Shown: positions 18,257 to 35,519 of the stretch, one piece after another
Layout: each line of letters begins with the position of its first letter
Numbering within the stretch: position 1 is the first letter of the stretch
Assembly (NCBI GenBank): GCA_905197955.1
Contig: CAJKAR010000018.1
Location: 16,374-80,373 of the forward strand
Direction: 5' to 3'
Length of the DNA stretch: 64,000 nucleotides
Origin: an uncultured Lentisphaeria bacterium
Lineage (GTDB): Bacteria > Verrucomicrobiota > Lentisphaeria > Victivallales > UBA1829
Made by a program: the position numbers and the translations under genes
The notes under the pieces: generated by a model
Database searches by the model: none
Told to the model about the DNA's origin: nothing
The model's input: only the letters and a program-made list of their open reading frames with translations

Positions 18257-19072
18257 TCACAACGCCACTGAAAGATGTCCCCGCTTCCCATCCACATCGG
18301 TGTGGTCGATCCGGAGACGTCCATCGGAAATCGCTATGGAATTCACATGCTTGTCTCTTCCGACCGCGATCTTTTCCTTCACCTTCCCGTCCTTCCACAC
18401 GACAATCATCCGATACGGCAGCTTTCCGGCGGGACTGCACACGATTTCCCCCGCAAGCAGATCCCCCGAAGCCAGACACAGCTCCGGCGACAATTTGAAT
18501 ATATCGCGTTCCCCCTCCCGGAACTCTCCACGGTACCGGCCGTTCTGAAAACGCCGTTCGATCCGATCCATTCCGGTAAACGACAGATCCTTCATTTGCC
18601 GGAACGCCTCCCGCGCCTCCGGTGACGCATTCAGATACTGAAGACGATCATACAACAACGTTCCCGCCCGCATGGAAAGATCAAACGCCGCAAGACTCCC
18701 TCCCTCATAATCCGAAGGCTCCTTCAACGTGCGGAAATATTCCTCCTCCCACTGTTTCTGCTCCAGAATTGCCTCCTCCCGCCGCTCCTCCGGCAGAGAA
18801 TTCAGGTAATCCCGGAAAAAGGCGTACAGTTCCGCCTGTCGCAGAGTCGTTCCGGCGGCAGCGCAGAGATTCATATCGGTCTGTGTCCGGACGCGCTGGA
18901 GCATTTCATCCATATATTCCGCTCCGTGGCGGCAGGCTTCCGGTTCGAACAGCGGTTCCGGCATCGGCATCTCCTCCCGGCTCTCCGGCAGAGCGATCCC
19001 GATCAGAACTCCCGCCGCAAACAGGCATACCCCGCAGGCTCCGGCAACAATCATCATGGTTCTTTTGTTCAT
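18257..19072 (-). CDS. membrane-anchored protein with a DUF1311 (LprI-like) N-terminal region
   Basis: N-terminal TM helix (MMIVAGACGVCLFAAGVLIGIAL). The pattern C..T..M..C......L...Y......Q..W resembles lysozyme-inhibitor LprI/DUF1311. The C-terminal half is unassigned. Confidence 0.5.
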   Translation of the reverse strand: MNKRTMMIVAGACGVCLFAAGVLIGIALPESREEMPMPEPLFEPEACRHGAEYMDEMLQRVRTQTDMNLCAAAGTTLRQAELYAFFRDYLNSLPEERREEAILEQKQWEEEYFRTLKEPSDYEGGSLAAFDLSMRAGTLLYDRLQYLNASPEAREAFRQMKDLSFTGMDRIERRFQNGRYRGEFREGERDIFKLSPELCLASGDLLAGEIVCSPAGKLPYRMIVVWKDGKVKEKIAVGRDKHVNSIAISDGRLRIDHTDVDGKRGHLSVAL

Positions 19073-19169: not shown

Positions 19170-20201
19170 TCACCATTTCACGACCTCCGGTTTCAAAATC
19201 ACCTCTTCCGGAACAAACGACGAATCCGTCAGAAGCCGGTACAGGTTTTCCGCACACAATTCCGCAGTCCGCAGAGGGGAAAGGACCACCTCCGCCTCCG
19301 GTCGATGCTTCACGCCGTAAAGAGCAAACGGAGTGTCATCCGTCACAAAGACACAGCGCTCCGCGGCATCCGCGGGCAGAAGGGAAAGAGCCCGGTCGCC
19401 CACGGCGGTCTCGGTTCCGAACGAAAAGAGACCGTCAACGGAATGCTTCTCGAACAGGGCGCAGATTTTTTTCGTGATATCCTCCGAGGTATTGATCCGG
19501 AGTTTTCTGTCGCAGAGGATCCCCCGCGCGGCGAATTCATCGGACCAGCCCCGGTAGACCTCCCGGCGGACACCGCTGCTCTCGTAGCCAGAAAAAATCA
19601 CATTCCGACAGCCGGCATCCAGAAAATAAGCCGCAAGAAGCCGTCCCGCAAGCACATAGTCCAGCGTGATATTGCAGGGGTGCCCGCCGACTACATCGCC
19701 GATCGTATAGACGGGCACTTCGCGGCGGAGCTTCTTAAGAACGGAAAGAACGGAACGGGATGGACGAATCCAGATGATGCCATCCGGTTTGCTGACCGTC
19801 AGCTCGGAAACCATGTCGTCGCCAACCACATTCACGATCTGCACCTTGACCGGAAGCGAAGCAAAAACATGGAATATCCCGTTCAGGAGCTTCATCGTGA
19901 AACCGTCGATGGAAGAATATTTCGCCGTGTCGATCAGAATGATGATCTTATAGGACTTCAACAGGGAAAAGGAGTCGTTGCGCCGGTTGGTCGCCCGGAT
20001 GAACATACCGCGTCCCGGACGGTTGTAGATGTAGCCGTCATTCACCAGATCCCGCAGAGCGTTCCGGACGGTGGTCCGGCTCACATGAAACCGGGCGGAA
20101 AGCTCGCGCTCCGATGAGATCCGGACCTCGCTGTCCCTGTGTTCAAACACCATGTCAATGATGTACTTCCGTATATGCATGTAAGACGGAACATTCGCCA
20201 T
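19170..20201 (-). CDS. AraR-like regulator: GntR-type winged HTH fused to a LacI/PBP1-type sugar-binding domain
   Basis: N-terminus ISSERELSARFHVSRTTVRNALRDLVNDGYIYNRPGRGMFI is a GntR HTH. The remaining ~260 aa have alternating beta-alpha character like LacI/GalR effector domains. Confidence 0.8.
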   Translation of the reverse strand: MANVPSYMHIRKYIIDMVFEHRDSEVRISSERELSARFHVSRTTVRNALRDLVNDGYIYNRPGRGMFIRATNRRNDSFSLLKSYKIIILIDTAKYSSIDGFTMKLLNGIFHVFASLPVKVQIVNVVGDDMVSELTVSKPDGIIWIRPSRSVLSVLKKLRREVPVYTIGDVVGGHPCNITLDYVLAGRLLAAYFLDAGCRNVIFSGYESSGVRREVYRGWSDEFAARGILCDRKLRINTSEDITKKICALFEKHSVDGLFSFGTETAVGDRALSLLPADAAERCVFVTDDTPFALYGVKHRPEAEVVLSPLRTAELCAENLYRLLTDSSFVPEEVILKPEVVKW

Positions 20202-20398
20202 TCAAAAAACCCCTTCCGGTAACTTCAAAAAAAAACAAGATAATTTAAAACAAAATTGGAAAAATACAAGAAAACCTATCGGAAATATTTGAAACAGCCC
20301 TCTTCCGCCGTTCTCTTTTCCTTAAATAAAAAGAGAAAATACCAGCGGTTTTCTGCAAGAAAAAACGCTTTTTTCGTCATTTCGTATCTTTCCCCCTC

Positions 20399-20427
20399 TT
20401 GACATCTACTACATTTTTTGATATAAT
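20399..20427 (+). promoter_or_regulatory. consensus sigma70 promoter of the 11.4-kb regulator-pseudopilin-giant protein operon
   Basis: TTGACA (20399-20404), a 17-nt spacer, then TATAAT (20422-20427). A near-palindrome GTGTAATAGAC (20433-20443) just downstream is a possible GntR-type GT-N7-AC operator. Confidence 0.7.
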
Positions 20428-20460
20428 ATATAGTGTAATAGACAAAAAAAGGAAAAGACC

Positions 20461-21579
20461 GTGGTTTCTCAGAAAATCAAAACCAAAGGACGCGATCCGG
20501 TAAAACGGGAGGAAATCCTCTCTTATATCCGGGAGCGGGTTCATCGCGGCATCTGGAGACCTGGGGACAAACTGCCGCCGCGCACCTGGTTCGAACAGCA
20601 GTTCGACGCCGCGCCTTTAACCGTGCAGCGCACGTTCCAGATCCTGATCGACGACAAAGTCCTGTGCTCTGAAAAACGGATCGGCACACGGGTCAGTCTC
20701 CGGCAGCCGCATCTCTCCAGATACGGAGTCATCCTGTACGGTACGCGAAAACTGGAAAGCATGTTTTCTCAGGTTTTCATCAAGGCTCTTGAACAAGTGG
20801 CGGAGAAGGAGGAGATTGACATCGACTGTTTCTTTGTCCTCGGTCTCACCAAAGACGCCGAGGATTACCGCAGACTCCTCTATGGAATCGAAAACGGTCT
20901 TTTTGCCGGACTCTTTTTTGCAACCATTCCCAATTCTCTGGCAAACACGCCGGCCGTCTGCAACGATCTGCCGAAAATCGCGATCGGTCATCCATCCCGT
21001 GAGTTTCCGGAACTGCCGACGATCAATCTGGATACGGAAGGAGTCGTCACGGAAGTCCTCCGATATTTCTCCAAATGCGGATGCCGAAGAATCGCCGCCA
21101 TTCTTTCCGGAGAAAATTCGCATCTGGAAAACTGTGTTTCTTTTCAGAAAAAAGCGGCGGAATTCGGACTGGATGCTCCGGCGGGTTATGTTCTGGAGCT
21201 CAGTGCGGTTTCGCCGTTTCAGGTCAGACCGCTGACGCATCTGCTCTTCTCGCCGGACAACAGCCAGCCGCCGGAAGGACTCTATGTCGGCGACGATAAC
21301 TTTCTGCCGCATGTGATCGATATTCTCCGCGAACGCTTCGGCGACGATGCGGAACAGAAAGTCAAAATTGTTTCACAAGTCAACTTTCCGCGAATCTCTG
21401 AATATGACTTTCCCGTCAAATTCTTCGGTTTCGATCTCGCGGACCTGTTTCTCCGGTGCATCAAGACCATGCGGGAACTCCGGAAAAACGCGCAGCCGAC
21501 TCCCGCCTTGCTCTTCGAACCAATGGAAGACTCCGCTACTATGGATTCCCATACAACAAAGAAAGAAGGAACAAGATGA
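20461..21579 (+). CDS. AraR-like regulator (GntR HTH plus PBP1 sugar-binding domain), first gene of module 1
   Basis: GTG start with an AGGAAAAG SD. The HTH region is [41 protein letters not shown]. The C-terminal domain is PBP1-like. Confidence 0.8.
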
Positions 21580-22379
21580 AGAAGATTTTCACACTGATAG
21601 AGCTCCTCGTCGTAATCGCCATCATCGCCATCCTGGCGGCGCTTCTGCTTCCGGCGCTGCGGAAAGCCAGGGAAAAAGGAGAAGTCGCATCCTGTATGAG
21701 TAATCTGCGTCAGATGGGACAGGTCATACAGTCTTACGCCGGAGACAACAACGACTCCATGCCGATGTGTAAAAATGTGACCCAGCTCTGGTATCGTCCG
21801 AGTTTCGAAGGCTTTCTCTATCAGGAAGACGCCTCCGACAAATATCTGGCAACCTATGTCCCCGCCAGAAGCGACCTTCTTTACTGTCCCTCTCTGAAAG
21901 ACACTCTGAAAACTCAGACGAAAACCCAGTATATGGGATATATCATTCTGGGGATCTCCAGCTTCTATCCTCTCGACGGAACTGGCAACTCCACCGGAGA
22001 CGCCCATTATCTGACAGACTGGGCAAACTCCTACGGCAGATATTCTCTGAGCCGTCTTGCAACCAGTTCAATGCCCTATTCCAATGAAAACAATTCCGCC
22101 CCCAGGGCTTTTTCCAAACGGATTCTGGCTTCCGATCTGCTTTACCGCCCCAAAGACTCCGCCTATTTCGGACCCAATTTCGGACAAATTCCGGAACGAG
22201 GCGGCGCCCATTCCTGGCAGGGAGGCGGAAGCGTTTTTTCCGACGGCCATGTCGAATACCGGAACAATGGCCTGGGACGAGTCCCCGTCTCCTACGAGGA
22301 ATACAGCTACATGAGCGCAAACAAATCCTTCTATGCCGGACACTGGGCTCAACGCCCCTATGTTGCTCTGGCGAAGTAA
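21576..22379 (+). CDS. pseudopilin-like protein (prepilin-type N-terminal domain, degenerate H-X9-DG-type C-terminus), module 1
   Basis: [29 protein letters not shown]-terminus. C-terminus is [18 protein letters not shown] (H-X10-DG). The ATG at 21576 overlaps the regulator stop (ATGA). The 21456 ORF extension is rejected. Confidence 0.9.
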
Positions 22380-22399
22380 TCACGTAAGGAATATCACCG

Positions 22400-25300
22400 A
22401 TGAACAAACACCTTCTTCTCTTTTCCCTCTCCCTTTTGTGCGCAGGCGCTCTGCATGCGGAGGAACCGTTCCAGAACCTGTTTCTCCAATGGCTCCGCTC
22501 CGGAAAAATCAATACGGCCAAAAGCGGAGAATCTCCCGCCATGTTCCAGCCGCAGGACCGCGACGGAAGATGGCGCAACACCTTCTGCACCGGAGTTCCC
22601 ATTCCCTACTATGAAACCTGGCGGACAAAACCCGTTCCATCCGATGCGCCGCAAACGTTGACCGTTCAATTCAACGGCACCGTCAATCCGGGAACCATCC
22701 TCGCATTTGCCGCCGATACGACCGATACGCTCTTCACCATCGAAGGCTTTTCCGCTCCGCCTGCCGGCATCATCACGCTTCCCGTCGGCAGGGAGATCGG
22801 ATCCCTGACGCTCAAAAGCACAAAACTCGAACCCGTCCTCATCAACAACTGGGGCAGCAGGAAAGAGCTGACCACTCCGCTGAAAGCCTATCAGTTCTCC
22901 CTGCATGGACTCTATGCCATGGTGGAACAGCGGGTCAATATTGCTCCGTTTGCCCGTCCGCAGGTCTCCGGAATCTCCCTCCAGAAGCAGGCAGATGCTC
23001 CGAGAATTTCCGCAGCGGGACTCAACGACAACTCCACCTGGCATTTCTGGCGCAGCGAAAAACTTTCCTCCGGTCAGACCGCCCGTGCCGAACTGCTTTT
23101 TCCCTCTCCCGCAACCGTCCGGGAAACCGTTCTCTATTTCGCAGGGCGAGCTTACGACCTGATTCCTAAAGCCGTGAAAGTCTCGGCGGAAACGGAGAAC
23201 GGATCTCTGGAAATCGGAACCCTCGAAGGACTTAAAAAGGAACAGTTCAAAGGAAAATTCTTCTACCGGCTCCGCAATCCGCAGCCGGATGCCAAAATCA
23301 GAAAGCTGATTTTTGAGTTCACTCCGCAGAAAGATGTTGCCGCAGTCAGCGAGATTCTCGTTCTTGCCGCCCCCGGCGACAATCCCGGATTGAAACTCCA
23401 TGCCGACAAGCCCTATTCAAAAGAGTTTTCCATTCCCCGGAACGGCGGGACCTTCGCTTCGGCAGTCCTTGTCAGCCGGACCGGTGAACGGGTCCGCAAC
23501 CTTGCGCCGGGAAGAGCCGACGGGGATAAATTCATCTTCTCCTGGGACGGCCTCGATGAATCCGGTCTTGTCGTCCCGGAAGGCACCTATCAGCTGAAAG
23601 GCGCCACGCGCGGAAATCTCCGGGCAGAATACAACAGCACCCCCTACATGCCCAATCCGATTCCATGGGTCACGCCCGATCGAAAAGGCGGATGGCTCTC
23701 GGATCACGTTCCGGCAAGCACAATCGAATTCGCCGGAGGAGCTCTCTGGATCGGAGCGCCATTCGCGGAAAGCGGCGACACCATCATGCAGCTGACTCAG
23801 GAAGGGAAAAAACTCTGGGGAGTCCGCTGGCTGAACCTTTCAGGAGCCTGGACCATCCGGGAACAGGGCGGCAAAATCTATGTTGCCTCAGGCGGCGGAT
23901 GGCTCGGAAACAAACTGTTCGTCACGGAACTGGACCCCGCTGCCAAGGACTTCAAACAGCTCCTGAAAATCGAGGTCCCGAAAGAAATGGCTCAGAAAAA
24001 AGACTGGAAAAGCCGCTCCTTCAACGGATTCGCAGTCAATGAGAACACGCTTTACCTCTCCTACTCCAAACTCAACCGGATTGATGTGTATGGAAAAGAC
24101 GGGAAAAAGATCCGCACCATCGCCCTCCCCGCTCCCGGAGCCATGCGTTTCCATAACGGGGAACTGTATCTGATCTCCGGCAATAAGCTTCTCCAATACG
24201 ATCCGGCAGCCGGAACCAGGAAAGAGATCATCTCCAAAGGACTGGTCAAGCCGGGCGATTTCTCCTTCCACAACGGAAAAATCCTTGTCGCCGACACGGG
24301 AGCCAATCAGGTCAAACTCTTTTCCATGAAAGGAAAACTCCTGAAAACAATCGGCAAAGGGACTCCGCGCAAAGCCGGAAAGTTCGATCCGCTGGTTCTG
24401 GACTCCCCGATCGCGGTCGCGGCGGACTCCCGCGGGCAAATCTGGATCGCCGAATTCTCGACCCTTCCGAAACGCATCAGCGTCTGGAGTCAGGAAGGAA
24501 AGTTCCTGCGCGACTATCTCGGCCCCGCACGCTACGAGGCGGGAAGCTGGATGGATCCCGACGACATCAACACCTACTACGCCGAAGGCATGATCTTCAA
24601 ACGGATTCGCGGCGAATGGAAACTCGATTCCGTATATCTGGATACGACACCTGCGTTTGTCCGGGTGTTTCTGGAAAAGACCATGATCCCGGAACGTCCG
24701 CTGAAACTGAACGGGAACACGTTCCTGGCCAATGACCGTCACTGGTCGCAGCCGCTGATCTGGTACGGGGTTCTGGAACAGGATCACATTCTCAAACCGC
24801 ATATGGCTCTCGGCACCTACGAAAAAATCATCGGGCTCTTCCGGGAACGGCCCGAAAACTATTCCGGCAATCCGAAGGACTACACCTTCCTCTGGGTCAA
24901 CCGCAACAACGACGGCAACATGCAGTGGAATGAGATCCAGTTTCTGAAACGTCCGTTTGCCCGCCTCCAGTGGTGCGAACGGATGGGACGGGATCTCACG
25001 CTCTACTGGCAGAGCGGAAACGAAATCAAAAAACTCCAGAGGAAACCCGGAAGCGGACTGCCGGACTACGATCTTGCCAAAGCCGAAACACTCCGGACCC
25101 TCGCCCCCGGCGAATACCTCTACGCGATGGCGCCGCTGACCGACGGTCAGCTTCTCCTGAACATGAAGCCCCTGACCTGTATTTCCCAGACGACCGGCCG
25201 TACCCTCTGGACCTATCGCAATGCCTATCCTTCGAACTCGCATGACAGTCCCCTGCCCGCGCCGGGTGAAATTCAGCACACCCTCAACGCGGAAGGAGAA

Positions 25301-26353
25301 GTTTCCGTTCCCAACTTCGGCAAAGTCTTCCTGCTGAACGGCAACAAGGGACTCCGCTATCTCTTCAGCGGCGACGGCATCTTCCTCGGCACCCTCTTCG
25401 CCGATCAGAGACTTGCCGAACCGCTCTCCATCTCCAACGTTCAGGAGGGAATGGATCTTTCGCACTACTCCCTGATGGATGAAGCCTTCTGCGGAACCTT
25501 CGAGCGCGGAGCCGATGGAAAAGTCTACTTCTCCGGCGGCAAGAACCACCATTCGATCTATGAGATCAAAGGACTGGATTCCCTGAAACGTTTCTCGCAG
25601 GACATCCGCTTCTCCTCCGAAGAGCGGAAACAGGCGGAGGAATCGCGCATCCGCGAGATTCAGAAGAAAAAAGCCGCTCTTATTGAAACGCCCTCCGTCC
25701 TGCCCCGCATTCAGGGCAATGACTGGAAAAAGGTTCCGGAACAGAAGGTGTTCAGCAATGGAAAAGTCTTCTACACCTATCGTCTGGCTTACGACAACAC
25801 CCATCTCCGCGGACAATTCCAAGTCTACGATCCGACCCCCTTCCTCAACAACGGAGGCGACTGGAAAATGCTCTTCAAAACAGGCGACTCCATCAATCTG
25901 GAATTTGCTTCGGCAAACGGGAAAGCGCCCTCAATCGGCGATATCCGTCTGCTGATCGCCCCGCTCCGCGGCCAGGCGGTCGCCGTTGCCTACCGCTACA
26001 AACTGGAAGGGGATCACAGCAAAACTGCCTCGGAATTCTCCTCGCCCATCGGGAAAACAGTCGTGGACAAGGTGGAAATTCTCAAGAACGCGAAAATTCA
26101 TGTGAAGCGCGGCGGGAACTACTACCAGGTCGATCTCTCCATTCCGCTGGCGGACCTTCCGCCGCTGGCAAAAGAGACGTTCTATTATGACGCGGGGGTC
26201 ATCTTCTCCGACGCAAGCGGAAGCCGGAACAGTTTCAATCTGTTCCATCACAGCCCCCTGAAAGGCATCACGGCCGATGTCCCAAGCGAAATACGGCTCA
26301 CGCCGAATTATATGAAAAAAATCACGAAACTCATGAAAGGCTCCACAAAATGA
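22400..26353 (+). CDS. 1317-aa secreted multidomain protein (beta-sandwich/discoidin-like x2, FlgD-Ig-like, NHL-like beta-propeller, CBM9/DOMON-like C-terminus); paralog of 27908..31816
   Basis: Signal peptide MNKHLLLFSLSLLCAGALHAEE. FlgD-Ig-like FIFSWDGLDESGLVVPEGTYQLKG. NHL-like blades (ILVADTGANQVKLFSMKGKLLKTIG; IAVAADSRGQIWIAEF). C-terminal blocks align by eye with the paralog. Confidence 0.85.
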   Translation: MNKHLLLFSLSLLCAGALHAEEPFQNLFLQWLRSGKINTAKSGESPAMFQPQDRDGRWRNTFCTGVPIPYYETWRTKPVPSDAPQTLTVQFNGTVNPGTILAFAADTTDTLFTIEGFSAPPAGIITLPVGREIGSLTLKSTKLEPVLINNWGSRKELTTPLKAYQFSLHGLYAMVEQRVNIAPFARPQVSGISLQKQADAPRISAAGLNDNSTWHFWRSEKLSSGQTARAELLFPSPATVRETVLYFAGRAYDLIPKAVKVSAETENGSLEIGTLEGLKKEQFKGKFFYRLRNPQPDAKIRKLIFEFTPQKDVAAVSEILVLAAPGDNPGLKLHADKPYSKEFSIPRNGGTFASAVLVSRTGERVRNLAPGRADGDKFIFSWDGLDESGLVVPEGTYQLKGATRGNLRAEYNSTPYMPNPIPWVTPDRKGGWLSDHVPASTIEFAGGALWIGAPFAESGDTIMQLTQEGKKLWGVRWLNLSGAWTIREQGGKIYVASGGGWLGNKLFVTELDPAAKDFKQLLKIEVPKEMAQKKDWKSRSFNGFAVNENTLYLSYSKLNRIDVYGKDGKKIRTIALPAPGAMRFHNGELYLISGNKLLQYDPAAGTRKEIISKGLVKPGDFSFHNGKILVADTGANQVKLFSMKGKLLKTIGKGTPRKAGKFDPLVLDSPIAVAADSRGQIWIAEFSTLPKRISVWSQEGKFLRDYLGPARYEAGSWMDPDDINTYYAEGMIFKRIRGEWKLDSVYLDTTPAFVRVFLEKTMIPERPLKLNGNTFLANDRHWSQPLIWYGVLEQDHILKPHMALGTYEKIIGLFRERPENYSGNPKDYTFLWVNRNNDGNMQWNEIQFLKRPFARLQWCERMGRDLTLYWQSGNEIKKLQRKPGSGLPDYDLAKAETLRTLAPGEYLYAMAPLTDGQLLLNMKPLTCISQTTGRTLWTYRNAYPSNSHDSPLPAPGEIQHTLNAEGEVSVPNFGKVFLLNGNKGLRYLFSGDGIFLGTLFADQRLAEPLSISNVQEGMDLSHYSLMDEAFCGTFERGADGKVYFSGGKNHHSIYEIKGLDSLKRFSQDIRFSSEERKQAEESRIREIQKKKAALIETPSVLPRIQGNDWKKVPEQKVFSNGKVFYTYRLAYDNTHLRGQFQVYDPTPFLNNGGDWKMLFKTGDSINLEFASANGKAPSIGDIRLLIAPLRGQAVAVAYRYKLEGDHSKTASEFSSPIGKTVVDKVEILKNAKIHVKRGGNYYQVDLSIPLADLPPLAKETFYYDAGVIFSDASGSRNSFNLFHHSPLKGITADVPSEIRLTPNYMKKITKLMKGSTK

Positions 26354-27897
26354 AATTCTTTCTCTCAGCAATCACCGCGGCGGCGCTTCTGCTTCCGGCA
26401 AGTTCGTTCGCGGAACGGATTCTTGTCGTCGGAGACAGCATCACGGGACACTCCATGAACTTGAAGTTCGGGTATACGCATCAGGTACGCAAAGCGCTCA
26501 AGGAGTGCGGAGTCGGCGATGTTGAATTCATTCCGCTCGGCGGAAGCGGTCAGTCGGTCACCTCCTGGCGAAACGTGATCCGGGACTCCCGGGCGAAAAA
26601 CCAGAAGCTCGACATCCCCGGAATCTTCGTCAGAGAGGAGTTTGACAAGGGTGCCGATACCGTCATCATCTTTCTCGGCATGAACGACGCCCTTGCTCCG
26701 TACACCGATTTTTCCTCTCTCCAGCGCTGGAAAGAGGACTACCGGAAACTCGTCAGCGATCTGAAAGCCAGACTCAAATTCAAAAAACTCATCCTTGCCT
26801 CTCCCACCATGCTGACCGAAACGCCATTTTCCTACAAAAACACCCTGATGGATGAAATGGCAAAAATCATCCGCGATCTGGCGAAGGAACTCGGTGCCGA
26901 ATATCTCGATACCCGCGAAAGTTTTCAGCAATATCATGAAGCCATGCGGAAGCAGAATCCGAAACAGAACTTCATGCTGGATTACGTGCATCCGAACGAA
27001 CGGGGCCACAACAGTCTGACGCACTCCTTTCTGAAGGCGATCGGCCGGAAAAATGTCTCCGATCACTACCTTCAGAAAACCATGCCCGCTGCCATGAAAG
27101 TTGCGCAGAAGCCCGGCATGAGCCTTTATGTGCAGAACAGTCGTGTTCCGGGGGAATTCACAATCCGCGGCTCCCTCGCCGGGGGCGATTTCAAGGATCT
27201 CAAAGCTCAGCTTCCGGAAGGACTGACCCTCAAAAAGATCGACGGTTCGGCAAACGATTTCACGCTCACGGTAACCGGAGAACCCCGACAGCTGAAAAAC
27301 ACGGTCACGGTCACCGCCGGCTCCGTGAAACAGACCCTCGCGCTGAACGCGCCCTTCCTGATCTCCACCGGCTACGACAGCGGACGCTGGTTCAAGCCGG
27401 CCGACTTCCAGAAAGAGAAAGCGGAAACGCAGATCGACCGCGATGCAAAAGCCGGAAAGGATGTCACACAAAGCATCGTCAATGGAAAGAAAACGGAATG
27501 GCTGGTCTACTACCCGACCGCCGATGTCACCGGAGGGGACGACCCGAATGCAGTGGATTTTGCCTCCGTCACCAACGGCAAACCGTTTGAATCGGGATAT
27601 CTTCTGCGCTATATCCATTCCCCGGAAGCAAGGAAAGTCAATCTGAGTGTCGGATCGAAAACTTTCGCAGGCCAGGAACAGGTCACGGTCTACCTCAACG
27701 GGAAAGAGGTGTACAGCGATGTCATCACCTCGAAAAAAGGAAAACGCGATTCCGTTCCGGTGGAACTGAAAAAAGGCTGGAACACGCTGATTGCACGGGT
27801 CAGTCACGTCACCTGGCAGTGGGCGGCAAGCGTAGGACTCAAGAATGCAGACGGATCGGATGTCCCGGACCTCACCAGCTCCATCACAGGCAAATAA
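26350..27897 (+). CDS. secreted SGNH/GDSL hydrolase (carbohydrate esterase-like) with a C-terminal beta-sandwich region
   Basis: Signal peptide present. Block I is ILVVGDSITG, block III is IFLGMNDA, block V is DYVHPNERGH. ATGA overlap with the upstream gene. Confidence 0.85.
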   Translation: MKFFLSAITAAALLLPASSFAERILVVGDSITGHSMNLKFGYTHQVRKALKECGVGDVEFIPLGGSGQSVTSWRNVIRDSRAKNQKLDIPGIFVREEFDKGADTVIIFLGMNDALAPYTDFSSLQRWKEDYRKLVSDLKARLKFKKLILASPTMLTETPFSYKNTLMDEMAKIIRDLAKELGAEYLDTRESFQQYHEAMRKQNPKQNFMLDYVHPNERGHNSLTHSFLKAIGRKNVSDHYLQKTMPAAMKVAQKPGMSLYVQNSRVPGEFTIRGSLAGGDFKDLKAQLPEGLTLKKIDGSANDFTLTVTGEPRQLKNTVTVTAGSVKQTLALNAPFLISTGYDSGRWFKPADFQKEKAETQIDRDAKAGKDVTQSIVNGKKTEWLVYYPTADVTGGDDPNAVDFASVTNGKPFESGYLLRYIHSPEARKVNLSVGSKTFAGQEQVTVYLNGKEVYSDVITSKKGKRDSVPVELKKGWNTLIARVSHVTWQWAASVGLKNADGSDVPDLTSSITGK

Positions 27898-27907
27898 GGA
27901 GCGGAAG

Positions 27908-30900
27908 ATGAAATTTTCAAAATATCTGACGGCACTTTTCACAGGAGCCTCCTTCATTCTGCCTCTCGGAGCTCTGGATATTATGGATGGGGTCATGTAC
28001 GCCGTCCCGGCGCCTGCGAAGATCAGGATCGACGGCAAACTCAACGACTGGGATCACTCCGGAAAAGAGTGGCTCGCCCTCTCCCGCGAAGTTGCCGACC
28101 GCTTCTCCGGCGATGTCATGGTCATGTACGATGACAACGCCCTCTATCTTGCCGCCGATATCCTCACCGGCGGCGGTCCCATGAAAAACACCAACAAACC
28201 AGGAGAAAAACCGTGGATCGGCCATAATCTGGAGTTCCGCTGCATCGCGACACCGAAAGCGCCGCATCCCCTGCGCATTGCGAAAAACGACATCTCCGAT
28301 CCGAGCGTGAAGGACTACGCTCCCTATATCAAAACCATGGCGATCTGGATGGAAACCGTCACCCGTACCCCCCATATCACCTTCCAGGACGGCCCCCCGT
28401 ATCAGGGCAAAATGATCCACGATCCGGAAGGAGTGCAGCTTGCATTCGGAGAGACAAAAAATCCCGACCGCTATCAGATGGAAGCCCGCATTCCCTGGAA
28501 ACTCCTCGGCGTGGAATCCGGCAAAAATCCATTCAAGCCCGGCGAAGCCATGACGGCATTCTGGACCGTTCTCTGGCCGCAGAGCATCACCCAGCGCGCG
28601 GAGGCGCTCCGCATCGCGCCGACCACCGGATTCGGATGGGCATGGCACGGAGTCAATAAATGGGGCAGAATCGTCTTTGCTCCCGACAACAAGCTCAAAC
28701 GGCGCAATCCGGATCTGAAGACCTATCTGGCGCAGAGTGCGGAGGTGCCTGACTGCGACAGTTTCACCGTCAATATGCCGAAAGATGGAATGCTCTCGGT
28801 CAGCATCATCGGAAAAGACGGTTCCGTTCTTCGGGAAATCGCCGGAGGGGAACGTCATAAAAAAGGTCCCGTCACCCTCTACTGGGACGGCTTCGACTGG
28901 CGCGGCAACAAAATGCCTGTCGGCGAATACACCTGGAAAGCCTATGTTCATGATCCGCTGAAAGTCACGTTCACCGGAGCCGCCGGCACCTCCGCCAAGG
29001 TCCCGTATGAAACACAGGACGGCAGAGGAAACTGGGGCGGAAACATGGGACCCGCCACCGCCGTCGCCAGCGACGAACAGGGACTGTATTACCTCTGGGG
29101 CAGCAATGAAGGCGGACAATCCATCGTCAAAACCGATTTCGACAACAACGTCCTCTGGCGCACCACTCCGTATGTGATCGACGGCGGCTACGGTCCCCAT
29201 ACCGCCATCGGAGCCAACCGGAAATACGTCTATGTTCTTTCCGGCTGGTTCAACACCTTCCTCACCCGCTACGATGCGAAAAACGGACTCACGGCGCCGT
29301 TCGGCGATCAGCGTTTTCTCACGCTTGATTCCTACGGGAAAACCCCTCCCCAGCAGCTCGACTGGAATACGCCGATGCCTTCCGCCAACTCCATTGTCGT
29401 CACGGAAAAGGAAGTCTTCGTCCCCCTCCACTACAAAGGACAAATCCATGTCTACGACGCCGAAACCGGCGCCCTGAAACGCACCCTTCCCTGCGAATGG
29501 GCGCGCGGAGCCGCTCTCGACCGCAACGGCGACCTCTATGTTCTCACCATGCGCGACACCAACGGCTGGCACAACCGGGGCGCGGAACTGCATCGCTTTG
29601 CCAAGGCGCAAGGGAAATCCCGCATGGTCATGCGTCTGCCCGGACAGATCCAGAATCCCTGGAGCATCACAGCCCATGACGGAAAATTCTATATTTCCGA
29701 CAACGGATATTCCAATCAGATCTGGATTGTCTCGAACGGCAGGATCGCCGGAAGGCTCGGTACGGAAGGCGGTCGCCCGTGGTACGGTAAATACGATCCG
29801 AAAGGACTGCTTCATCCCGCAGGACTCCACATCGACCGGTTCGGCAAGCTGCATGTCGCGCAGGCCGCCATTCCGAGCGTCTTCCAGAAATACGATGCAA
29901 AGACTCTTGCGCTGGAGGGAGAGCTCTTCGGAGAGGTCGGGTACTGTCCGCCGAGCTGGCCGGACTGCGATGATCCGCTTCTTGTGTACGTCAAGGACTA
30001 CTTCTCCAACGGTCTGATCCGCAGCCGTCTCAAAGGCGACGGCACCTCCTCCGGAACCGAAGCCTACTGGCGCTTCTCCAAAATGGACTGGCCCTATTCA
30101 CTGCAATCCTGGCTCTCCAATTACAAGGTTCCGCGAGTCTTCCGGGGACCGGGCAATCTCAAGTACATGTTTGCCGCAGGACTGAATGCGAATCCCGCCG
30201 TGCTCGTGCGCATGGAAGGCGATACGCTCAAACCGGTCAACAGCTTCGGCACCGACGGCATCCGGAACGGACTCAAAGTCTGGAGCGACCGCAACGGAAA
30301 CGGAAAAATCGATCCGGAAGAAATCCGCATCGTCACAAAACTTGCCGGACAGACACTCGATGCAAAATGGCAGGCTCATGCAAGCAAAGTCGATGACCGC
30401 GGCAACATCTATCTCACGGCAAGCGACAACAAAGTCTACTTCATTCCCTTCCGCTCGCAGGGGAAAAACGGCTGCATGGAGTGGGATTTCGACCGATCCA
30501 GGATTCTCGTCCGGGAAATCATTCCGGGAGCCAGAACGCCGCTGTTCTACACCGCGCGCGAGCAGATCACCGGAATCGACGAGGACAGCAAGGGAAATCT
30601 CTATCTTTCGTTCAACACGAACCTCAAGTACGCCTCGCCCGAATGGACAAGCAAACTGAAGTTCGGACTCGGTCACAGCGGACGCTTCAATGCGGTCAAG
30701 ATCGTCTCGTTCGATCCGCAGGGCAGACAGCGTTTCCTGGTTGGCCGGAAAGCCACCGGAGTCCTGCGCGACGGCGAAATGTATCATCACTGGACCCAGG
30801 CGGGAATGCTCGGCGATCACTATGTGGCAGTCGGCTCCGAATGGACCCCCTTCACGCTCTATACCTCCGACGGTTTCTTCGTCCAGTCGCTTCTGGCGGA

Positions 30901-31816
30901 CCCGAACCGCGGCGAAACACCGAGTCCGTTCAGTCTCGGCGGCGGAGAGACCTTCGCCGGTCAGCTCCGTTATTTCCCCGAACGCTCCGAAGCCTATCTC
31001 TATACCGGCAACACGCACGGAATGGTCTATCGGATCGAAGGGCTCAACAAGGACGGGACAATCAAAGGGGAAAAACGCTTCTCCGGAACAATGAAACTGA
31101 CACGTCATCTTGACCCGTTCGCGGAAAAAACGGAAACGGCAAAGGCGGTCTTTGAACCGCTCAGCGATCCGCTCCGGACGGGTGAATGGAAAAGTTCCGT
31201 CGTACTCAACGACAACAGCGGACGCCGTCTGGCAGACGTCAGTTTCGGATACGACAGCTCCATGCTTTATGCCCGCTTCCTCGTCCGGAATCCGAAGCCG
31301 TTCGTCAATCGTGCGGATGATCCGGCAATGGCATTCAAGATGGGCGATTCCGTCGGATTCTATCTCGGAAAGCCCGGCAGAAAAGCTCCGACCGATACGG
31401 TCCGGATTCTTGCCACCATTCTGAAAGGCAAACCCGTCGTCATCGGTTTCTTCCCGAAGTCCGGAGCTTTGAAGCAGCCGTATGAGTACTTCACAACAGC
31501 GGGCGGGCGCGTCAGGTATGAGTTCGCCGGAGTCATTCCGGATGCGCGCGCGGTCTTCCGGCCGAACAACGGAGGATATACGGTCGAAATCGCCGTTCCC
31601 CGCAGAGCTCTGCCGGATTATGAATTCAAAAAAGGCGGTAAGATCGCTCTGGAAGCCGAAGTGCTTCTCTCCGGAAACGGAATACGCGGACTTCAGACCC
31701 TCTCCCGCAACCACCTCTTCACGCCGCGTTCCGCCGGACAGGCAAAGATGGTGGATGATATTCCGAGCGAAGCCAGAATCTATCCGCAGTACATGAAAAA
31801 CGCGGAAATCAGATAA
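27908..31816 (+). CDS. 1302-aa secreted multidomain protein (N-terminal CBM9-like, FlgD-Ig-like, NHL-like beta-propeller, CBM9/DOMON-like C-terminus); paralog of 22400..26353
   Basis: The ATG at 27908 gives signal peptide MKFSKYLTALFTGASFILPLGA. The 27845 extension is rejected. CBM9-like IRIDGKLNDWDHSG. FlgD-Ig-like VTLYWDGFDWRGNKMPVGEYTWKAYV. NHL-like blades are present. The C-terminus ...DDIPSEARIYPQYMKN parallels ...ADVPSEIRLTPNYMKK in the paralog. Confidence 0.85.
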   Translation: MKFSKYLTALFTGASFILPLGALDIMDGVMYAVPAPAKIRIDGKLNDWDHSGKEWLALSREVADRFSGDVMVMYDDNALYLAADILTGGGPMKNTNKPGEKPWIGHNLEFRCIATPKAPHPLRIAKNDISDPSVKDYAPYIKTMAIWMETVTRTPHITFQDGPPYQGKMIHDPEGVQLAFGETKNPDRYQMEARIPWKLLGVESGKNPFKPGEAMTAFWTVLWPQSITQRAEALRIAPTTGFGWAWHGVNKWGRIVFAPDNKLKRRNPDLKTYLAQSAEVPDCDSFTVNMPKDGMLSVSIIGKDGSVLREIAGGERHKKGPVTLYWDGFDWRGNKMPVGEYTWKAYVHDPLKVTFTGAAGTSAKVPYETQDGRGNWGGNMGPATAVASDEQGLYYLWGSNEGGQSIVKTDFDNNVLWRTTPYVIDGGYGPHTAIGANRKYVYVLSGWFNTFLTRYDAKNGLTAPFGDQRFLTLDSYGKTPPQQLDWNTPMPSANSIVVTEKEVFVPLHYKGQIHVYDAETGALKRTLPCEWARGAALDRNGDLYVLTMRDTNGWHNRGAELHRFAKAQGKSRMVMRLPGQIQNPWSITAHDGKFYISDNGYSNQIWIVSNGRIAGRLGTEGGRPWYGKYDPKGLLHPAGLHIDRFGKLHVAQAAIPSVFQKYDAKTLALEGELFGEVGYCPPSWPDCDDPLLVYVKDYFSNGLIRSRLKGDGTSSGTEAYWRFSKMDWPYSLQSWLSNYKVPRVFRGPGNLKYMFAAGLNANPAVLVRMEGDTLKPVNSFGTDGIRNGLKVWSDRNGNGKIDPEEIRIVTKLAGQTLDAKWQAHASKVDDRGNIYLTASDNKVYFIPFRSQGKNGCMEWDFDRSRILVREIIPGARTPLFYTAREQITGIDEDSKGNLYLSFNTNLKYASPEWTSKLKFGLGHSGRFNAVKIVSFDPQGRQRFLVGRKATGVLRDGEMYHHWTQAGMLGDHYVAVGSEWTPFTLYTSDGFFVQSLLADPNRGETPSPFSLGGGETFAGQLRYFPERSEAYLYTGNTHGMVYRIEGLNKDGTIKGEKRFSGTMKLTRHLDPFAEKTETAKAVFEPLSDPLRTGEWKSSVVLNDNSGRRLADVSFGYDSSMLYARFLVRNPKPFVNRADDPAMAFKMGDSVGFYLGKPGRKAPTDTVRILATILKGKPVVIGFFPKSGALKQPYEYFTTAGGRVRYEFAGVIPDARAVFRPNNGGYTVEIAVPRRALPDYEFKKGGKIALEAEVLLSGNGIRGLQTLSRNHLFTPRSAGQAKMVDDIPSEARIYPQYMKNAEIR

Positions 31817-31842
31817 ACGGCACGATCGGACAATCTGAAACG

Positions 31843-31878
31843 GGGCCGTCGGAACTCACTCCGGCGGCTCTGTTTTTT
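31843..31878 (+). terminator. rho-independent terminator of the module-1 operon
   Basis: 11-bp stem (31843-31853 pairs with 31860-31870, including two G-U pairs), loop actcac, followed by tgTTTTTT. Confidence 0.85.
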
Positions 31879-31917
31879 CCAAGTGCAATCACCAAGTGCA
31901 ATCACCAAGTGCAATCA
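31879..31917. repeat. three perfect tandem copies of the 13-mer CCAAGTGCAATCA (plus a partial fourth, CCGAGT)
   Basis: Read directly at 31879-31891, 31892-31904 and 31905-31917. Sits between the terminator and the putative -35 of the next gene. Confidence 0.95.
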
Positions 31918-31924
31918 CCGAGTC

Positions 31925-31952
31925 TTGCATCCGCGCCAAATAGCGGTACATT
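31925..31952 (+). promoter_or_regulatory. putative promoter of 31983..33647
   Basis: TTGCAT (31925-31930), a 16-nt spacer, then TACATT (31947-31952). An AGGAG SD lies at 31971-31975. Confidence 0.35.
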
Positions 31953-31982
31953 ATCCATACATCAAAAAAAAGGAGTCTGCTC

Positions 31983-33647
31983 GTGAATATGGACAAACTG
32001 TTGAAATCCGTCGAACCGCGATTCGACGAAGCCGTTTCCATGCCTTCTTCGATCTGTCATTCCATCGGCTACCACAGCCGTCTGCCCGACGGGTGCATCT
32101 GTCACAGCACTAGAGAAGCGATTTATTACGCGCTGGCGCTGATCCGCTCCGGAAAAAAGAAAAATCTTGAACGAGCCGAAAAGGTCATCCGCGCCGTTCT
32201 GGCGCTTCAGGAGACCAATCCTTACAAACAGACCTACGGCATCTGGCCGTGGTTCCAGGAGGAACCCCTCCCGAAAATGGCGCCGCCCGACTGGAACTGG
32301 GCGGATTTCATCGGAGCCGCGCTCTGCCATATCCTGATCGAACACAAAAAAGAGCTTCCGAAACCGCTCGTCAAAGAGATCACCGATGCTTTGGAACGGG
32401 CAGCATGGTCCATCTTCCGGCGGAATGTGCAGCCGAATTATACGAACATCGCTCTCATGGGAGCCGCTGTCACATCCGCGGCAGGACGGATTCTCAAAAA
32501 CGATCTGCTCACCGAATACGCCCGGGAACGGATCAAAGCGTTCTGGGAATTCACGGAGGAGACCGGCGGACTCAATGAATACAACAGTCCGACCTATACC
32601 TTTATCGCCCTCTTTGAAACAGAACGCATTCTCCAGCTCTCCAAAGACCCTGAAACGTGCGAATATGCGGAAAAGCTCCGCCGTCTTATCTGGCAGTCGC
32701 TCGCGGACCACTACCATCCCGCGACCGGACAGCTAGCAGGACCGCACAGCCGGGCCTATGCCTCGTGCCTTAATCCGGGAATCATCCGTTATCTCACGGA
32801 AATGACCGGAGTCGACATCCCCGGGGCCGATCCGAAAGAGGAAAAAACTGATCTGAGTCTCTTTTCCGGTGAAACCCATCTGCCATGTCCGAAAAACATC
32901 GCAAAACGCTTCCGCAAACTCCCGAAAAAAGAGCTGGAATCCACACAGCGATTCATCAAACGGGAGCCGGATTCCGATTCCTTCTACGGCACCACATGGA
33001 TGACAGAACAGGTAGCATTCGGTTCCATCAGCCGCTGCTGCACCTGGGTGCAGGGACATCCGCTGATCGCCTACTGGGTCAACGGGAAAAAACCGGCGGT
33101 CTTCCATTTCAACTTCCTGAAAAACGGAAGAGAGTTCTCCTCCATGGGACTCCGCACGGCGCAGAAGAAAAACATCGCTCTGACCGCCTTCCATCCGCTG
33201 ACCGACCGCGGAGACTATCACATTCATCTCGACCATCCGGCGGATCAGACTTTCCACGCAGCCGAACTCGTTCTCCGCTACAAGCTGGAAGCCGAAAATG
33301 CGGAAGTCTGCGAACTCTCCGATGCGGTATTTGAACTCCGTGCCGGAGACTGGAAGGCTGTCGTTCACGTTCCGGAGGGATCGTTCGAAGGAGCTCCAAC
33401 GGCCTGTGCCTGCGGAAAAACAGAAAACGGCGCATACGTCGATATCATCTGCTATGCCGGCCCTGAAAAGGCATTCAAGTTCGATGAATCCCTTCAGGAT
33501 CAGCTGGCGGTCTCAGTCGAGATCCTCAAAGCGGATGAAAAAGTCTCCGCAGACCTGCCTGATGTAAAATCCAAAGGCGACACCGTCACCGCCGCATGGC
33601 GCGGACTTAACGTCACAGTCCCCCTCCACGGTGTCCCATACGACTGA
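31983..33647 (+). CDS. cytoplasmic protein of unknown function, mostly helical N-terminal half (possibly alpha/alpha-toroid-like) and beta-rich C-terminal half
   Basis: 554-aa ORF. The GTG at 31983 is 7 nt after the AGGAG SD (alternative ATG at 31989). No signal peptide. Trp/aromatic-rich helical segments (YGIWPWFQEEPLPKMAPPDWNWADFIG). No motif I can assign to a named family. Confidence 0.6.
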   Translation: MNMDKLLKSVEPRFDEAVSMPSSICHSIGYHSRLPDGCICHSTREAIYYALALIRSGKKKNLERAEKVIRAVLALQETNPYKQTYGIWPWFQEEPLPKMAPPDWNWADFIGAALCHILIEHKKELPKPLVKEITDALERAAWSIFRRNVQPNYTNIALMGAAVTSAAGRILKNDLLTEYARERIKAFWEFTEETGGLNEYNSPTYTFIALFETERILQLSKDPETCEYAEKLRRLIWQSLADHYHPATGQLAGPHSRAYASCLNPGIIRYLTEMTGVDIPGADPKEEKTDLSLFSGETHLPCPKNIAKRFRKLPKKELESTQRFIKREPDSDSFYGTTWMTEQVAFGSISRCCTWVQGHPLIAYWVNGKKPAVFHFNFLKNGREFSSMGLRTAQKKNIALTAFHPLTDRGDYHIHLDHPADQTFHAAELVLRYKLEAENAEVCELSDAVFELRAGDWKAVVHVPEGSFEGAPTACACGKTENGAYVDIICYAGPEKAFKFDESLQDQLAVSVEILKADEKVSADLPDVKSKGDTVTAAWRGLNVTVPLHGVPYD

Positions 33648-33781: not shown

Positions 33782-33810
33782 TTGACAGGGACATGTTTAA
33801 GATGTATTAT
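33782..33810 (+). promoter_or_regulatory. consensus-like sigma70 promoter of module 2 (GH5-regulator-pseudopilin)
   Basis: TTGACA (33782-33787), a 17-nt spacer, then TATTAT (33805-33810). Confidence 0.65.
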
Positions 33811-33834
33811 CACAACATGTTTAAGATGTATTAT
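33791..33834. repeat. direct duplication of the 20-mer ACATGTTTAAGATGTATTAT at a 24-bp period; each copy holds a 15-bp near-palindrome and a -10-like hexamer
   Basis: Copy 1 is 33791-33810 and copy 2 is 33815-33834, and they are identical. In ACATgTTtAAgATGT 6 of 7 arm positions pair. Confidence 0.9.
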
Positions 33835-33871
33835 TCAACTGATTTCAGGAAATCAAACAAGGGGAACACCG

Positions 33872-35518
33872 ATGAAACAAATGAAATCTGCCGGATTACT
33901 GTTACTGCTGCTCCTCCTTTCATTCGTGACAGGCGCCGGGGCGAGAGAACAGAAAGTGTTCTTTGCCGGAGACAAAAACGCGAACTGGTCGCTGAGCGAA
34001 TACGCCAGCTGGGTTGAACTTCCCGATGGAAACACTGCTCTGGAGATCCGGATCCCCCGGAACGCACCGATTCAGAACATCACCTACGGAGCAAGCCGGG
34101 AACTGGATCTGCGCTCTTTCCGGGGAAAACAGATCGTCATATCGGGAACCGTCAGCGCCAAAGAGGTTCCGGAACGGAACGAGGGGCACCGCTGCGTGAA
34201 ACTCATGTTATATCATCGGGGAAAAACAGGGAATCGTTACATTCCCTCCTCGTATCGTCTGTGGGGATCGTTTCCGGAAAGCAGACTGGAACTGGCATTC
34301 ACCGTTCCGGAAGATGTCGGCAAAAACACCCTGATGGTCGGCGTACAGCACAACACAGGCGTTGTTCTGGCAAAAGACCTGAAACTGGAAGTCAAAGAGT
34401 TCTATCCGGCGCCGGTCCCGATTCCGGATCATTTCCGCTGCGAGTATTCCGACGCGGTCCGGAACGCACCGCGTCTGCGCGGAGCCGGACTGATCTCCAC
34501 GGCAACGCCGGCGGACATACGGTCGCTGGCAGACAACGGAGCGAACCTCGTCCGCTGGTGGATCCGCTACGACCACAACGACAAGACCCTGAAAAGTCTG
34601 GATCAGGCTCTGGACCGTCTGGAATCCCTGCTGCCCGAATTCGAAAAACAGAACCTGAAAGTGATTCCCGTCCTCAACAACATCCCCGGCGGCCGATTCG
34701 CCAAACCGGTCATGCTCGGAATCAACGCTGCCGATGAAATCTCCAGAAGCCAAAGCAATTTCCAGCTTTTCTTCGACCGGGAACTGCTGGATCTCTATGT
34801 CCGAATCTGGGAAAAAACCGCACAGCGTTTCCGGAACAGGCCCGTCATCTACGGATACAGCGTCATGAATGAGCCGTCGCAGTTCGGCAAAGTTCCGTAT
34901 GATTATCTCTACTGCCAGTACCTTGCGGCAAAAGCGATCCGCCGGATCGATCCGGAAAAACCGATCTACATCGCCGCAAACAACTGGGATAAAGCCGATG
35001 CGTTCGCCTATCTCAAACCTCTTCCGCTGAAAAACATCCTCTATGAAGTCCACATGTACACGCCGCATGGCTATACTCATCAGGGAGTCGGTGCGACCAT
35101 CGAAAACATCAAACGGGGAAAATTCTTCGCCTATCCCGGAAAAATCGGAGATATGGAATACAATCGCGCCATTCTCCGCCAGACCCTCCAGCCCGCTGTG
35201 GATTTCCAGAAAAAATACGGAGCCAAAATCTACTGCGGCGAATTCTCCGTGATCCGCTGGGCTCCCGGCGGAGCGCAATATCTGGAGGACCTCTGCTCCA
35301 TCTTTGAAGAACTCGGCTGGGACTGGTCATACCACTGCCATCGGGAATGGATGAACTGGAGCTTCGAATATCCGAGCTCCTACGGCAGCAACAAAACGGC
35401 GCAGGAACCGACAGACCGTCAGAAAGTCCTTCAACGCTACTGGAAGAAAAATGCGTCCGCCTCTTCCGTCATTGCATCCCCCTCCCCCCGGCAGGCGGAC
35501 AGAAAGGCGGGACAATAA
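33872..35518 (+). CDS. secreted glycoside hydrolase family 5-like enzyme with an N-terminal beta-sandwich domain
   Basis: The ATG at 33872 gives signal peptide MKQMKSAGLLLLLLLLSFVTGAGA. The acid/base motif is YSVMNEPSQ and the nucleophile motif is IYCGEFSVIRW. Paralogous to 49261..51477. Confidence 0.8.
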   Translation: MKQMKSAGLLLLLLLLSFVTGAGAREQKVFFAGDKNANWSLSEYASWVELPDGNTALEIRIPRNAPIQNITYGASRELDLRSFRGKQIVISGTVSAKEVPERNEGHRCVKLMLYHRGKTGNRYIPSSYRLWGSFPESRLELAFTVPEDVGKNTLMVGVQHNTGVVLAKDLKLEVKEFYPAPVPIPDHFRCEYSDAVRNAPRLRGAGLISTATPADIRSLADNGANLVRWWIRYDHNDKTLKSLDQALDRLESLLPEFEKQNLKVIPVLNNIPGGRFAKPVMLGINAADEISRSQSNFQLFFDRELLDLYVRIWEKTAQRFRNRPVIYGYSVMNEPSQFGKVPYDYLYCQYLAAKAIRRIDPEKPIYIAANNWDKADAFAYLKPLPLKNILYEVHMYTPHGYTHQGVGATIENIKRGKFFAYPGKIGDMEYNRAILRQTLQPAVDFQKKYGAKIYCGEFSVIRWAPGGAQYLEDLCSIFEELGWDWSYHCHREWMNWSFEYPSSYGSNKTAQEPTDRQKVLQRYWKKNASASSVIASPSPRQADRKAGQ

Positions 35519-35519
35519 C

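Follow-up and report, generated by a model that had tools for sequence, protein, structure and literature searches.

A 64,000-nucleotide stretch of DNA from an uncultured Lentisphaeria bacterium (contig CAJKAR010000018.1, positions 16,374 to 80,373; hereafter the window) carries, at positions 20399-31879, a compact operon that encodes two proteins of 1317 and 1302 residues, here called giant 1 and giant 2, separated by the gene of a secreted SGNH esterase. Each giant is predicted by structural modelling to be built as a rigid beta core of ~1000 residues and four domains, to which an extra N-terminal module of binding type is added. Carbohydrate-binding module (CBM)-type domains, the adjacency and fusion of the esterase, sugar-type regulators and neighbouring carbohydrate-active enzymes (CAZymes) together support a carbohydrate-directed role coupled to O-deacetylation. 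Within this frame we tentatively favour, at somewhat less than an even chance, an undescribed carbohydrate-active family acting on O-acetylated glycans, in which the giants would form a bond-cleaving pair with giant 1 as the active member and giant 2 as its partner. Catalysis by the giants is plausible, and non-catalytic binding is nearly as likely.

Architecture of the paralogous core

The two giants align by BLASTP over ~1090 residues with 22% identity (E 4e-37) and are, by this comparison, true paralogs; all four motif pairs that an earlier note, made from the DNA alone, had quoted as collinear blocks do align. AlphaFold models were obtained for giant 2, over residues 270-1302 (model A: 1033 residues, 68 homologues, predicted local distance difference test (pLDDT) 91.7, predicted template modelling score (pTM) 0.90) and over residues 727-1302 (model B: pLDDT 92.0), and domain boundaries in giant 1 were placed by aligning it to the modelled giant 2. 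In model A the core is all-beta, running from a FlgD-type immunoglobulin-like domain (FlgD-Ig) through a conserved loop and two successive propellers to a C-terminal sandwich. Giant 2 begins with a CBM9-like module (residues ~25-265), followed by FlgD-Ig (~283-360), an NHL propeller (~383-722), propeller 2 (~740-1050) and a CBM9-like sandwich (~1055-1302). Giant 1 carries a family-specific N-terminal module of ~320 residues, then FlgD-Ig (~340-416), the NHL propeller (~439-755), propeller 2 with a calcium loop (~775-1063) and the CBM9-like sandwich (~1068-1311). The earlier note had spoken of a propeller/middle region of ~500 residues; its propeller nature holds, while its extent does not, there being really two propellers of ~680 residues in total.

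Pfam and NCBIfam recognise in the giants only the binding or scaffold modules FlgD-Ig, NHL and CBM9, all below threshold in the window proteins, which agrees with the earlier claim that no catalytic domain can be recognised; the three modules, also named in that note, are confirmed by profiles, structure and relatives. FlgD-Ig (PF13860) scores 24.7 and 24.6 bits in the window against a cut-off of 27, and 38-40 bits in relatives; its profile matches FlgD (3osv, 3e-09), and the residues W326, D327, G328 and Y341 of its WDG...G.Y motif are 94-99% conserved. It is joined to propeller 1 by a conserved loop of 24 residues with the consensus PPWxTxDGxGxWGxDH.

Propeller 1 consists in model A of seven four-strand groups, by strand count. 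The Pfam NHL model gives 18.4 bits against a cut-off of 20 in the window and passes the cut-off in relatives, and a profile of seven divergent cores matches the PknD sensor (2.7e-28), TRIM71 (3.7e-22) and the Pizza designs (to 1e-50) in the PDB. By these profile matches propeller 1 is of NHL type. PDB sequence searches with each giant returned TRIM-NHL and FlgD matches only. Propeller 2, searched by Foldseek with model B, resembles generic propellers only, including PAL (3fvz), NHL domains and designer proteins. It holds a 12-residue loop of EF-hand type (giant 2 D794-R-N-G-N-G-K-I-D-P-E-E805), whose last Glu is invariant and which, read from the motif alone, would be a structural Ca2+ site.

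The C-terminal sandwich of model B is matched by Foldseek to the CBM9 structure 1i82 (6.5e-07, target-normalised template modelling (TM) score, TMt, 0.62) as well as to 7nwo and 7nwn, and Pfam CBM9_1 scores 32-46 bits on this domain in the relatives P0092 and P0145; taken alone against PDB sequences, the domain is without a detectable sequence match to solved CBM9s. The N-terminal module of giant 2 reaches 18.3 bits for CBM9 in the window (cut-off 23.4) and 44 bits in the relative P0082, and relatives pass the CBM9_1 cut-off on N-terminal as well as C-terminal modules. Two discoidin-like sandwiches proposed earlier for the N-terminus of giant 1 could not be recovered, Pfam giving no match there even at E 0.5. 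Searched as a whole against the PDB, the core resembles generic tandem propellers (Utp/WD40 proteins and the BT4663 heparin sensor 4a2l) with query-normalised TM-scores (TMq) of at most 0.36, and a search of viral models by Foldseek gave no informative match.

Comparison with known systems delimits the architecture further. NHL propellers such as the PknD sensor and TRIM-NHL proteins (PF01436) share with propeller 1 the profile match and the VaD...NhR signature, whereas in the giants this propeller is one of four fused domains of a secreted 1300-residue protein with an unrelated second propeller and CBM-type flanks, and seemingly has seven blades by strand count against six in NHL systems. The C-terminal domain superposes on CBM9 of Thermotoga maritima Xyn10A (CBM9-2, 1i82) and of Caldicellulosiruptor (7nwo, 7nwn), but its conservation is greater than a simple appended CBM would lead one to expect, and, as the pTM of model A indicates, it is packed rigidly on the core. 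Two consecutive propellers, an Ig-like domain and a link to glycans are also found in GH74 xyloglucanases and in hybrid two-component sensors of the BT4663 type. BT4663 (4a2l) ranks high in the Foldseek search (E 1.9e-13), but its global superposition is poor (TM 0.19-0.27), and the giant core is without BNR/Asp-box or Reg_prop repeats and without a kinase or membrane part. As for GH74, the core has no BNR, Sortilin or PSII_BNR match in Pfam, no GH74 appears in the PDB sequence or Foldseek lists, and where BNR-type modules are present, in some relatives, they are confined to additions at the N-terminus.

Family size and modular variation

Word-indexed searches returned 19 relatives of giant 1 and 60 of giant 2, among which informative names are almost absent. 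An exhaustive profile search with the 1028-position core over 1.84 billion representatives of 50%-identity clusters brought up 2,537 proteins at E <= 1e-30; the 150 top-ranking representatives all lie below 1e-172, and nearly all of them span the full core. Counts at weaker thresholds are swollen by unrelated NHL-repeat proteins such as P0215, and we put the family at no fewer than several hundred clusters at 50% identity. Named carriers belong to Victivallales, Lentisphaeraceae, Kiritimatiellia and Verrucomicrobia, including Puniceicoccus vermicola, and further ones to Planctomycetota, Armatimonadota and one Bacteroidetes metagenome-assembled genome (MAG). No account of the family turned up in literature searches, and its function is not named in any source.

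Across 213 members a constant core is combined with changing N-terminal modules, which are CBM9-like in 140, of giant-1 type in 16, absent in 17 and of another kind, for example a BNR/Ycf48-like propeller, in 40. Giant-like open reading frames (ORFs) adjoining giants in two loci (L001, L006) bear PA14 or F5/8-type-C modules. Two members show more extensive fusion. P0154 (1416 residues) carries a complete two-domain SGNH esterase of the window type directly before the giant core (phmmer 7.6e-76, also by Pfam), and P0082 (2378 residues) holds two cores in one ORF, the first complete, of CBM9 type and spanning 269-1302, the other running from 1560 to the C-terminus, which would be either a real tandem fusion or the product of a stop missed in assembly.

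Conserved residues and two classes of paralogs

Near-invariant polar positions occur in all four domains among the 213 members; those of the Ig domain make up the FlgD-Ig fold motif, and in the CBM9-like C-terminal domain N1134, R1166, D1284 and E1288 are nearly invariant. The set in propeller 1 comprises, in giant 2 numbering, D379-H380, E401 (100% conserved), R623, E652, [KR]657, R658 and Y679. By strand order, each of these positions belongs to a B-C loop, a D-A loop or the stretch immediately preceding strand A of blade 1, and because B-C and D-A loops lie on one and the same face in every beta-propeller, the set would share a single 'top' face, a placement deduced from strand order and not from measured distances.

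The paralogs differ sharply in how they keep this set. Giant 1 retains D435-H436, E457, R657, E685, K691-R692 and Y712, while giant 2 has lost five signature positions, which read N379, M380, Q652, S657 and V658. The DH-E-[KR]-R signature is present in ~75% of the 213 members and in 16/16 members of giant-1 type, and within the giant-2 clade it decays stepwise from DHEKV/I through DHQxV to the NMQSV of the window. Where giants are adjacent, one R658 paralog is paired with one V/I658 paralog in nine of ten loci. In a neighbour-joining tree the giant-1 and giant-2 types form two clades, each extending over several lineages of the Planctomycetes-Verrucomicrobia-Chlamydiae (PVC) group; on this phylogeny they are old clades that have been kept side by side in several of these lineages. 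Signature loss, pairing and tree together identify giant 1, at the level of sequence, as the canonical paralog and giant 2 as its derived partner.

The operon and its signals

Five closely packed genes on the plus strand, with a promoter at one end and a terminator at the other, occupy 20399-31879, and the stretch from the GntR gene to giant 2 is a single transcription unit, in the extent and gene order that the earlier note had described. The sigma-70 promoter, with an extended -10 TG, lies at 20399-20427 (+) and reads TTGACA-17-TATAAT, agreeing with the consensus at 12/12 positions, the sole such match within 19500-33000. It precedes the GntR regulator gene (20461-21579, +; Pfam GntR 33.9 bits), which overlaps by ATGA the gene of a 267-residue prepilin-type, DUF1559-like pseudopilin (21576-22379, +). 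After a 20-nt gap comes giant 1 (22400-26353, +), overlapped over 4 nt by the gene of the 515-residue secreted SGNH/GDSL esterase (26350-27897, +), and 10 nt further on giant 2 (27908-31816, +), for which the start at 27908 is the one used in close homologues. Signal peptides head both giants and the esterase. The unit closes with an intrinsic terminator at 31837-31879 (+), a 17-bp stem with a 6-nt loop whose hairpin spans 31837-31876, followed by a U-run, with a folding energy of -28.7 kcal/mol (z -6.65) that was equalled in 0/200 shuffles. Right after the terminator and upstream of the next gene, at 31879-31923, the 13-nt unit CCAAGTGCAATCA is repeated in 3.5 tandem copies with 96% matches; the unit has no copy elsewhere in the window, and the array may serve as an operator.

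The regulator joins a GntR winged-helix N-terminus to a C-terminal effector domain of ~290 residues, which is LacI/periplasmic-binding-like in homologues (those in L005 combine GntR with Peripla_BP_3), and the same gene stands at the head of the syntenic loci L003, L004, L030, L031 and L038. The pseudopilin has the short leader, the start of F-T-L-I-E type and the hydrophobic helix of type IV pilins and type II secretion system pseudopilins, and scores 21.4 bits for NCBIfam IV_pilin_GFxxxE (TIGR02532; cut-off 16.3). This gene pair is not peculiar to the giants. The window contains two more GntR genes, one followed by a DUF1559/prepilin gene, the two together at 35451-37351 (+), and one at 19170-20201 (-), divergent from the giant operon, and for this reason GntR plus pseudopilin is a general head of sugar operons in this genome.

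The esterase matches Pfam Lipase_GDSL_2 (1.3e-17, 65.3 bits against a cut-off of 32.9) and has complete blocks I, III and V (GDSIT, GMNDA and DYVHPN), which supply the Ser-Asp-His triad of SGNH enzymes; judged by its motifs and signal peptide it is intact and secreted. Its C-terminal domain of ~280 residues is uncharacterised. The top PDB match is the acetylxylan esterase Axe2 (4oap, 2.3e-07), and NCBIfam points to AxeA1.

Genes associated with the giants in other genomes

Gene context was compared in 44 loci of at least 9 kb each. Two giants are present in 22 of them, a pseudopilin beside or between giants in 15 and a GntR regulator in 14. An SGNH esterase stands beside giants in 13/44 loci, or 10/41 once the close relatives of the window are collapsed, and the adjoining esterases fall into three subtypes: that of the window, that of L027 and L028 and the GDSL_3 type of L046 and L050. 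Together with the fusion in P0154, this makes the esterase link stronger than had been claimed earlier.

The earlier view that the setting is one of glycan degradation is also corroborated. The window is rich in carbohydrate-active genes (two GH5, CE4, GH95, a beta-helix protein and a BD-FAE esterase), and in related loci the neighbours include GH29, GH95, GH2, GH13, GH38, GH130, DUF1861, a six-hairpin glycoside hydrolase (GH), GH42-like proteins and sulfatases; in L051 a beta-helix, chondroitinase-B-like protein adjoins a giant. Sugar-type regulators and CAZyme neighbours occur in most PVC loci.

Two further associations were seen. Gly_rich_2 (PF21722) proteins of 577-647 residues lie directly upstream of giant pairs in loci of Lentisphaeraceae, Verrucomicrobia and Kiritimatiellia (L021 6274-8025 and L028 6796-8739; also L022, L025 and L027). 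On an Armatimonadota contig three secretin genes follow one another directly after a giant (L024 4189-9584).

Function of the giants

Under the favoured reading, an uncultured gut bacterium of the Victivallales would use this sugar-responsive operon to export a three-protein module for an O-acetylated glycan. The polymer would be held by the CBM-like ends of the giants and its acetyl groups would be stripped by the esterase, while the working site would be the 'top' face of the NHL propeller, made up (giant 2/giant 1) of the D-H loop, E401/E457, R623/R657, E652/E685, the [KR]-R pair and Y679/Y712. Giant 1, in which the full residue set is kept, would be the likely active subunit; the role of giant 2 would probably be that of a partner for binding or specificity, which may form a complex with giant 1. 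Cleavage of glycosidic bonds is the activity we favour, whether by hydrolysis or by elimination, and the pseudopilin and GntR regulator would be the usual operon head that need not be giant-specific. The preference for catalysis derives from the variable modules on a constant core, the strong conservation across phyla and the lack of another depolymerase in the operon, a Pfam scan of the five proteins having given no other candidate.

The more specific proposal of a new CAZyme family that has its catalytic centre on the NHL propeller, works as an obligate pair of a canonical and a degenerate paralog and is coupled to O-deacetylation is rather doubtful as a whole. To our knowledge, an NHL-type propeller has so far not been used by any known GH or polysaccharide lyase (PL) family. 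A sialidase-like site that takes an acidic O-acetylated sugar would be another reading compatible with the conserved basic residues, Tyr, Glu and Asp-His.

Several observations weigh against an enzymatic function. Pfam, NCBIfam, PDB sequence and profile comparisons and Foldseek gave no match of the core to a known GH, PL or carbohydrate esterase (CE) catalytic family, and no enzyme family is among the top 50 PDB hits of the whole core in Foldseek. Both propellers resemble binding scaffolds. E401, E652, K657 and R658 were first taken as a catalytic cluster and were then downgraded, since all four fall on the VaD...NhR signature generic to NHL repeats and may be determinants of the fold; E805 would likewise be accounted for by Ca2+ binding. 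Many environmental loci contain a lone giant with no recognisable CAZyme nearby, and the neighbouring enzymes are heterogeneous between loci, which suits generic capture as well as a diversified enzyme family. The earlier note would have given up an enzymatic reading if the central region matched a non-enzymatic scaffold confidently and showed no conserved pocket of active-site type; the first of these is what the profile comparison of propeller 1 with PknD and TRIM71 gives, yet a conserved polar cluster does exist.

The best-surviving alternative, a serious possibility although we would not bet on it, is that the giants are non-catalytic glycan-capture platforms at the surface or in the periplasm, a PVC counterpart of the surface glycan-binding proteins of Bacteroidota or of tandem-propeller sensors. 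The pseudopilin/secretin machinery may display them or pass them on, and their task would be to keep the polymer in place for the esterase and for glycosidases whose genes lie elsewhere. Such a role is consistent with the proximity of propeller 1 to non-enzymatic NHL scaffolds, with the likeness of the whole core to tandem-propeller binders including the BT4663 heparin sensor, with two CBM9-type modules per protein and with CAZyme neighbours that vary by locus; the stable paralog pair and the tandem fusion would suit a heteromeric scaffold. The pseudopilins of 15/44 loci and the three secretins of L024 point the same way, but GntR-plus-pseudopilin heads on other window operons make the pilin link unspecific. 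Moreover, conservation over 1000 residues across phyla exceeds what is usual among glycan-binding proteins, catalytic cores are the normal partners to which CBM-type and esterase modules are attached, and the window operon would be left with an esterase and no depolymerase.

It is improbable that the giants are not directed at glycans at all and are cell-envelope or adhesion proteins, akin to NHL/PknD-like sensors or to PilY1-like Ca-regulated pilus tips, found by chance in sugar operons. Their NHL and FlgD-Ig domains are generic, the EF-hand-like loop in a propeller recalls PilY1, pseudopilins and secretins occur as neighbours, and several environmental loci are without a CAZyme nearby. Against this stand the CBM9-type modules at one or both ends of most members, the esterase fusion and adjacency, and the sugar-type regulators and CAZymes of most PVC loci. 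A PilY1-like pilus-tip protein in particular was set aside, there being no PilY1/PilC match in Pfam and no specificity of the pseudopilin link to the giants.

A narrower case inside the favoured reading, and a very improbable one in whose favour no observation speaks specifically, is the idea raised in the earlier note of a new beta-propeller lyase acting with an acetylesterase on an acetylated uronic-acid polymer of pectin/rhamnogalacturonan I type. The known parallel is PL11 with CE12, as in YesW/YesX and YesT/YesY of Bacillus subtilis, which are propeller lyases with SGNH esterase partners. Such systems likewise combine a propeller protein and an acetylesterase in one locus, and the conserved Arg, Lys/Arg, Tyr and His and the Ca2+ site of the giants are of the residue types that lyases use; the tight esterase link and the chondroitinase-B-like neighbour in L051 would also agree with a lyase. 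The giants, however, have two propellers instead of one, and their Ca2+ loop lies in propeller 2, apart from the conserved cluster. Neither similarity to PL11, PL22, PL24/25, PL42 or any GH (Pfam/NCBIfam at E <= 0.01; PDB sequences at E <= 1) nor a lyase fold was found, no PL entry being among the 50 leading PDB matches of either model in Foldseek or the best 60 of 93 PDB profile matches. The esterase is acetylxylan-esterase-like: no CE12 structure matched it at E <= 0.01 in the PDB, and no CE12 is among its best NCBIfam or PDB matches. GH88/GH105 and Kdu/Kdg genes for unsaturated uronates were absent among ~45 scanned neighbours and the pre-annotated loci (~25 loci, with partial neighbour coverage), while the recurrent neighbours (fucosidases, GH2, GH13, GH38, GH130, sulfatases) target neutral or sulfated glycans. 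An oxidoreductase combining a pyrroloquinoline quinone (PQQ)/AA12 domain with DOMON was set aside, as no GSDH/PQQ match rises above noise and the hosts are anaerobic.

Further features of the window

The nearest genomic matches bear the label uncultured Victivallales; these MAGs show 94%, 90% and 88% identity. Downstream of the giant operon, at 31983-33647 (+), a 554-residue ORF without a Pfam match occupies the same place 3' of giant 2 as in L004 and L009 and is followed by a GH5 gene (33782-35518); it is a candidate for one more glycan-active protein that annotation has missed. Upstream, a 271-residue ORF at 18257-19072 (-), also without a Pfam match, is kept in L004 and L008. At 54104-56009 (+) a carbon-nitrogen hydrolase gene adjoins that of a Porphyromonas-type peptidyl-arginine/agmatine deiminase, which looks like the agmatine-to-putrescine pair.

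Implications for glycan use in PVC bacteria

In guts and oceans, PVC bacteria (Victivallales, Kiritimatiellia, Verrucomicrobia, Planctomycetes) play an important part in breaking down complex glycans, and large proteins that lack annotation abound in many of their glycan loci. We know of no Sus-type machinery in them of the kind that explains glycan use by Bacteroidota. All domain folds of the giants are already known; what appears to be new is the four-domain core, the size of the family, the retained canonical/derived pair and the coupling to an esterase.

If the giants are non-catalytic, they would give PVC bacteria their first defined glycan-capture module of wide distribution. If they are catalytic, they would represent a new CAZy enzyme family and fold and a case in which an active and a degenerate paralog have been retained as a pair, and, should the proposal of a new NHL-propeller enzyme be true, the family could be a major unrecognised class of depolymerases in PVC bacteria.

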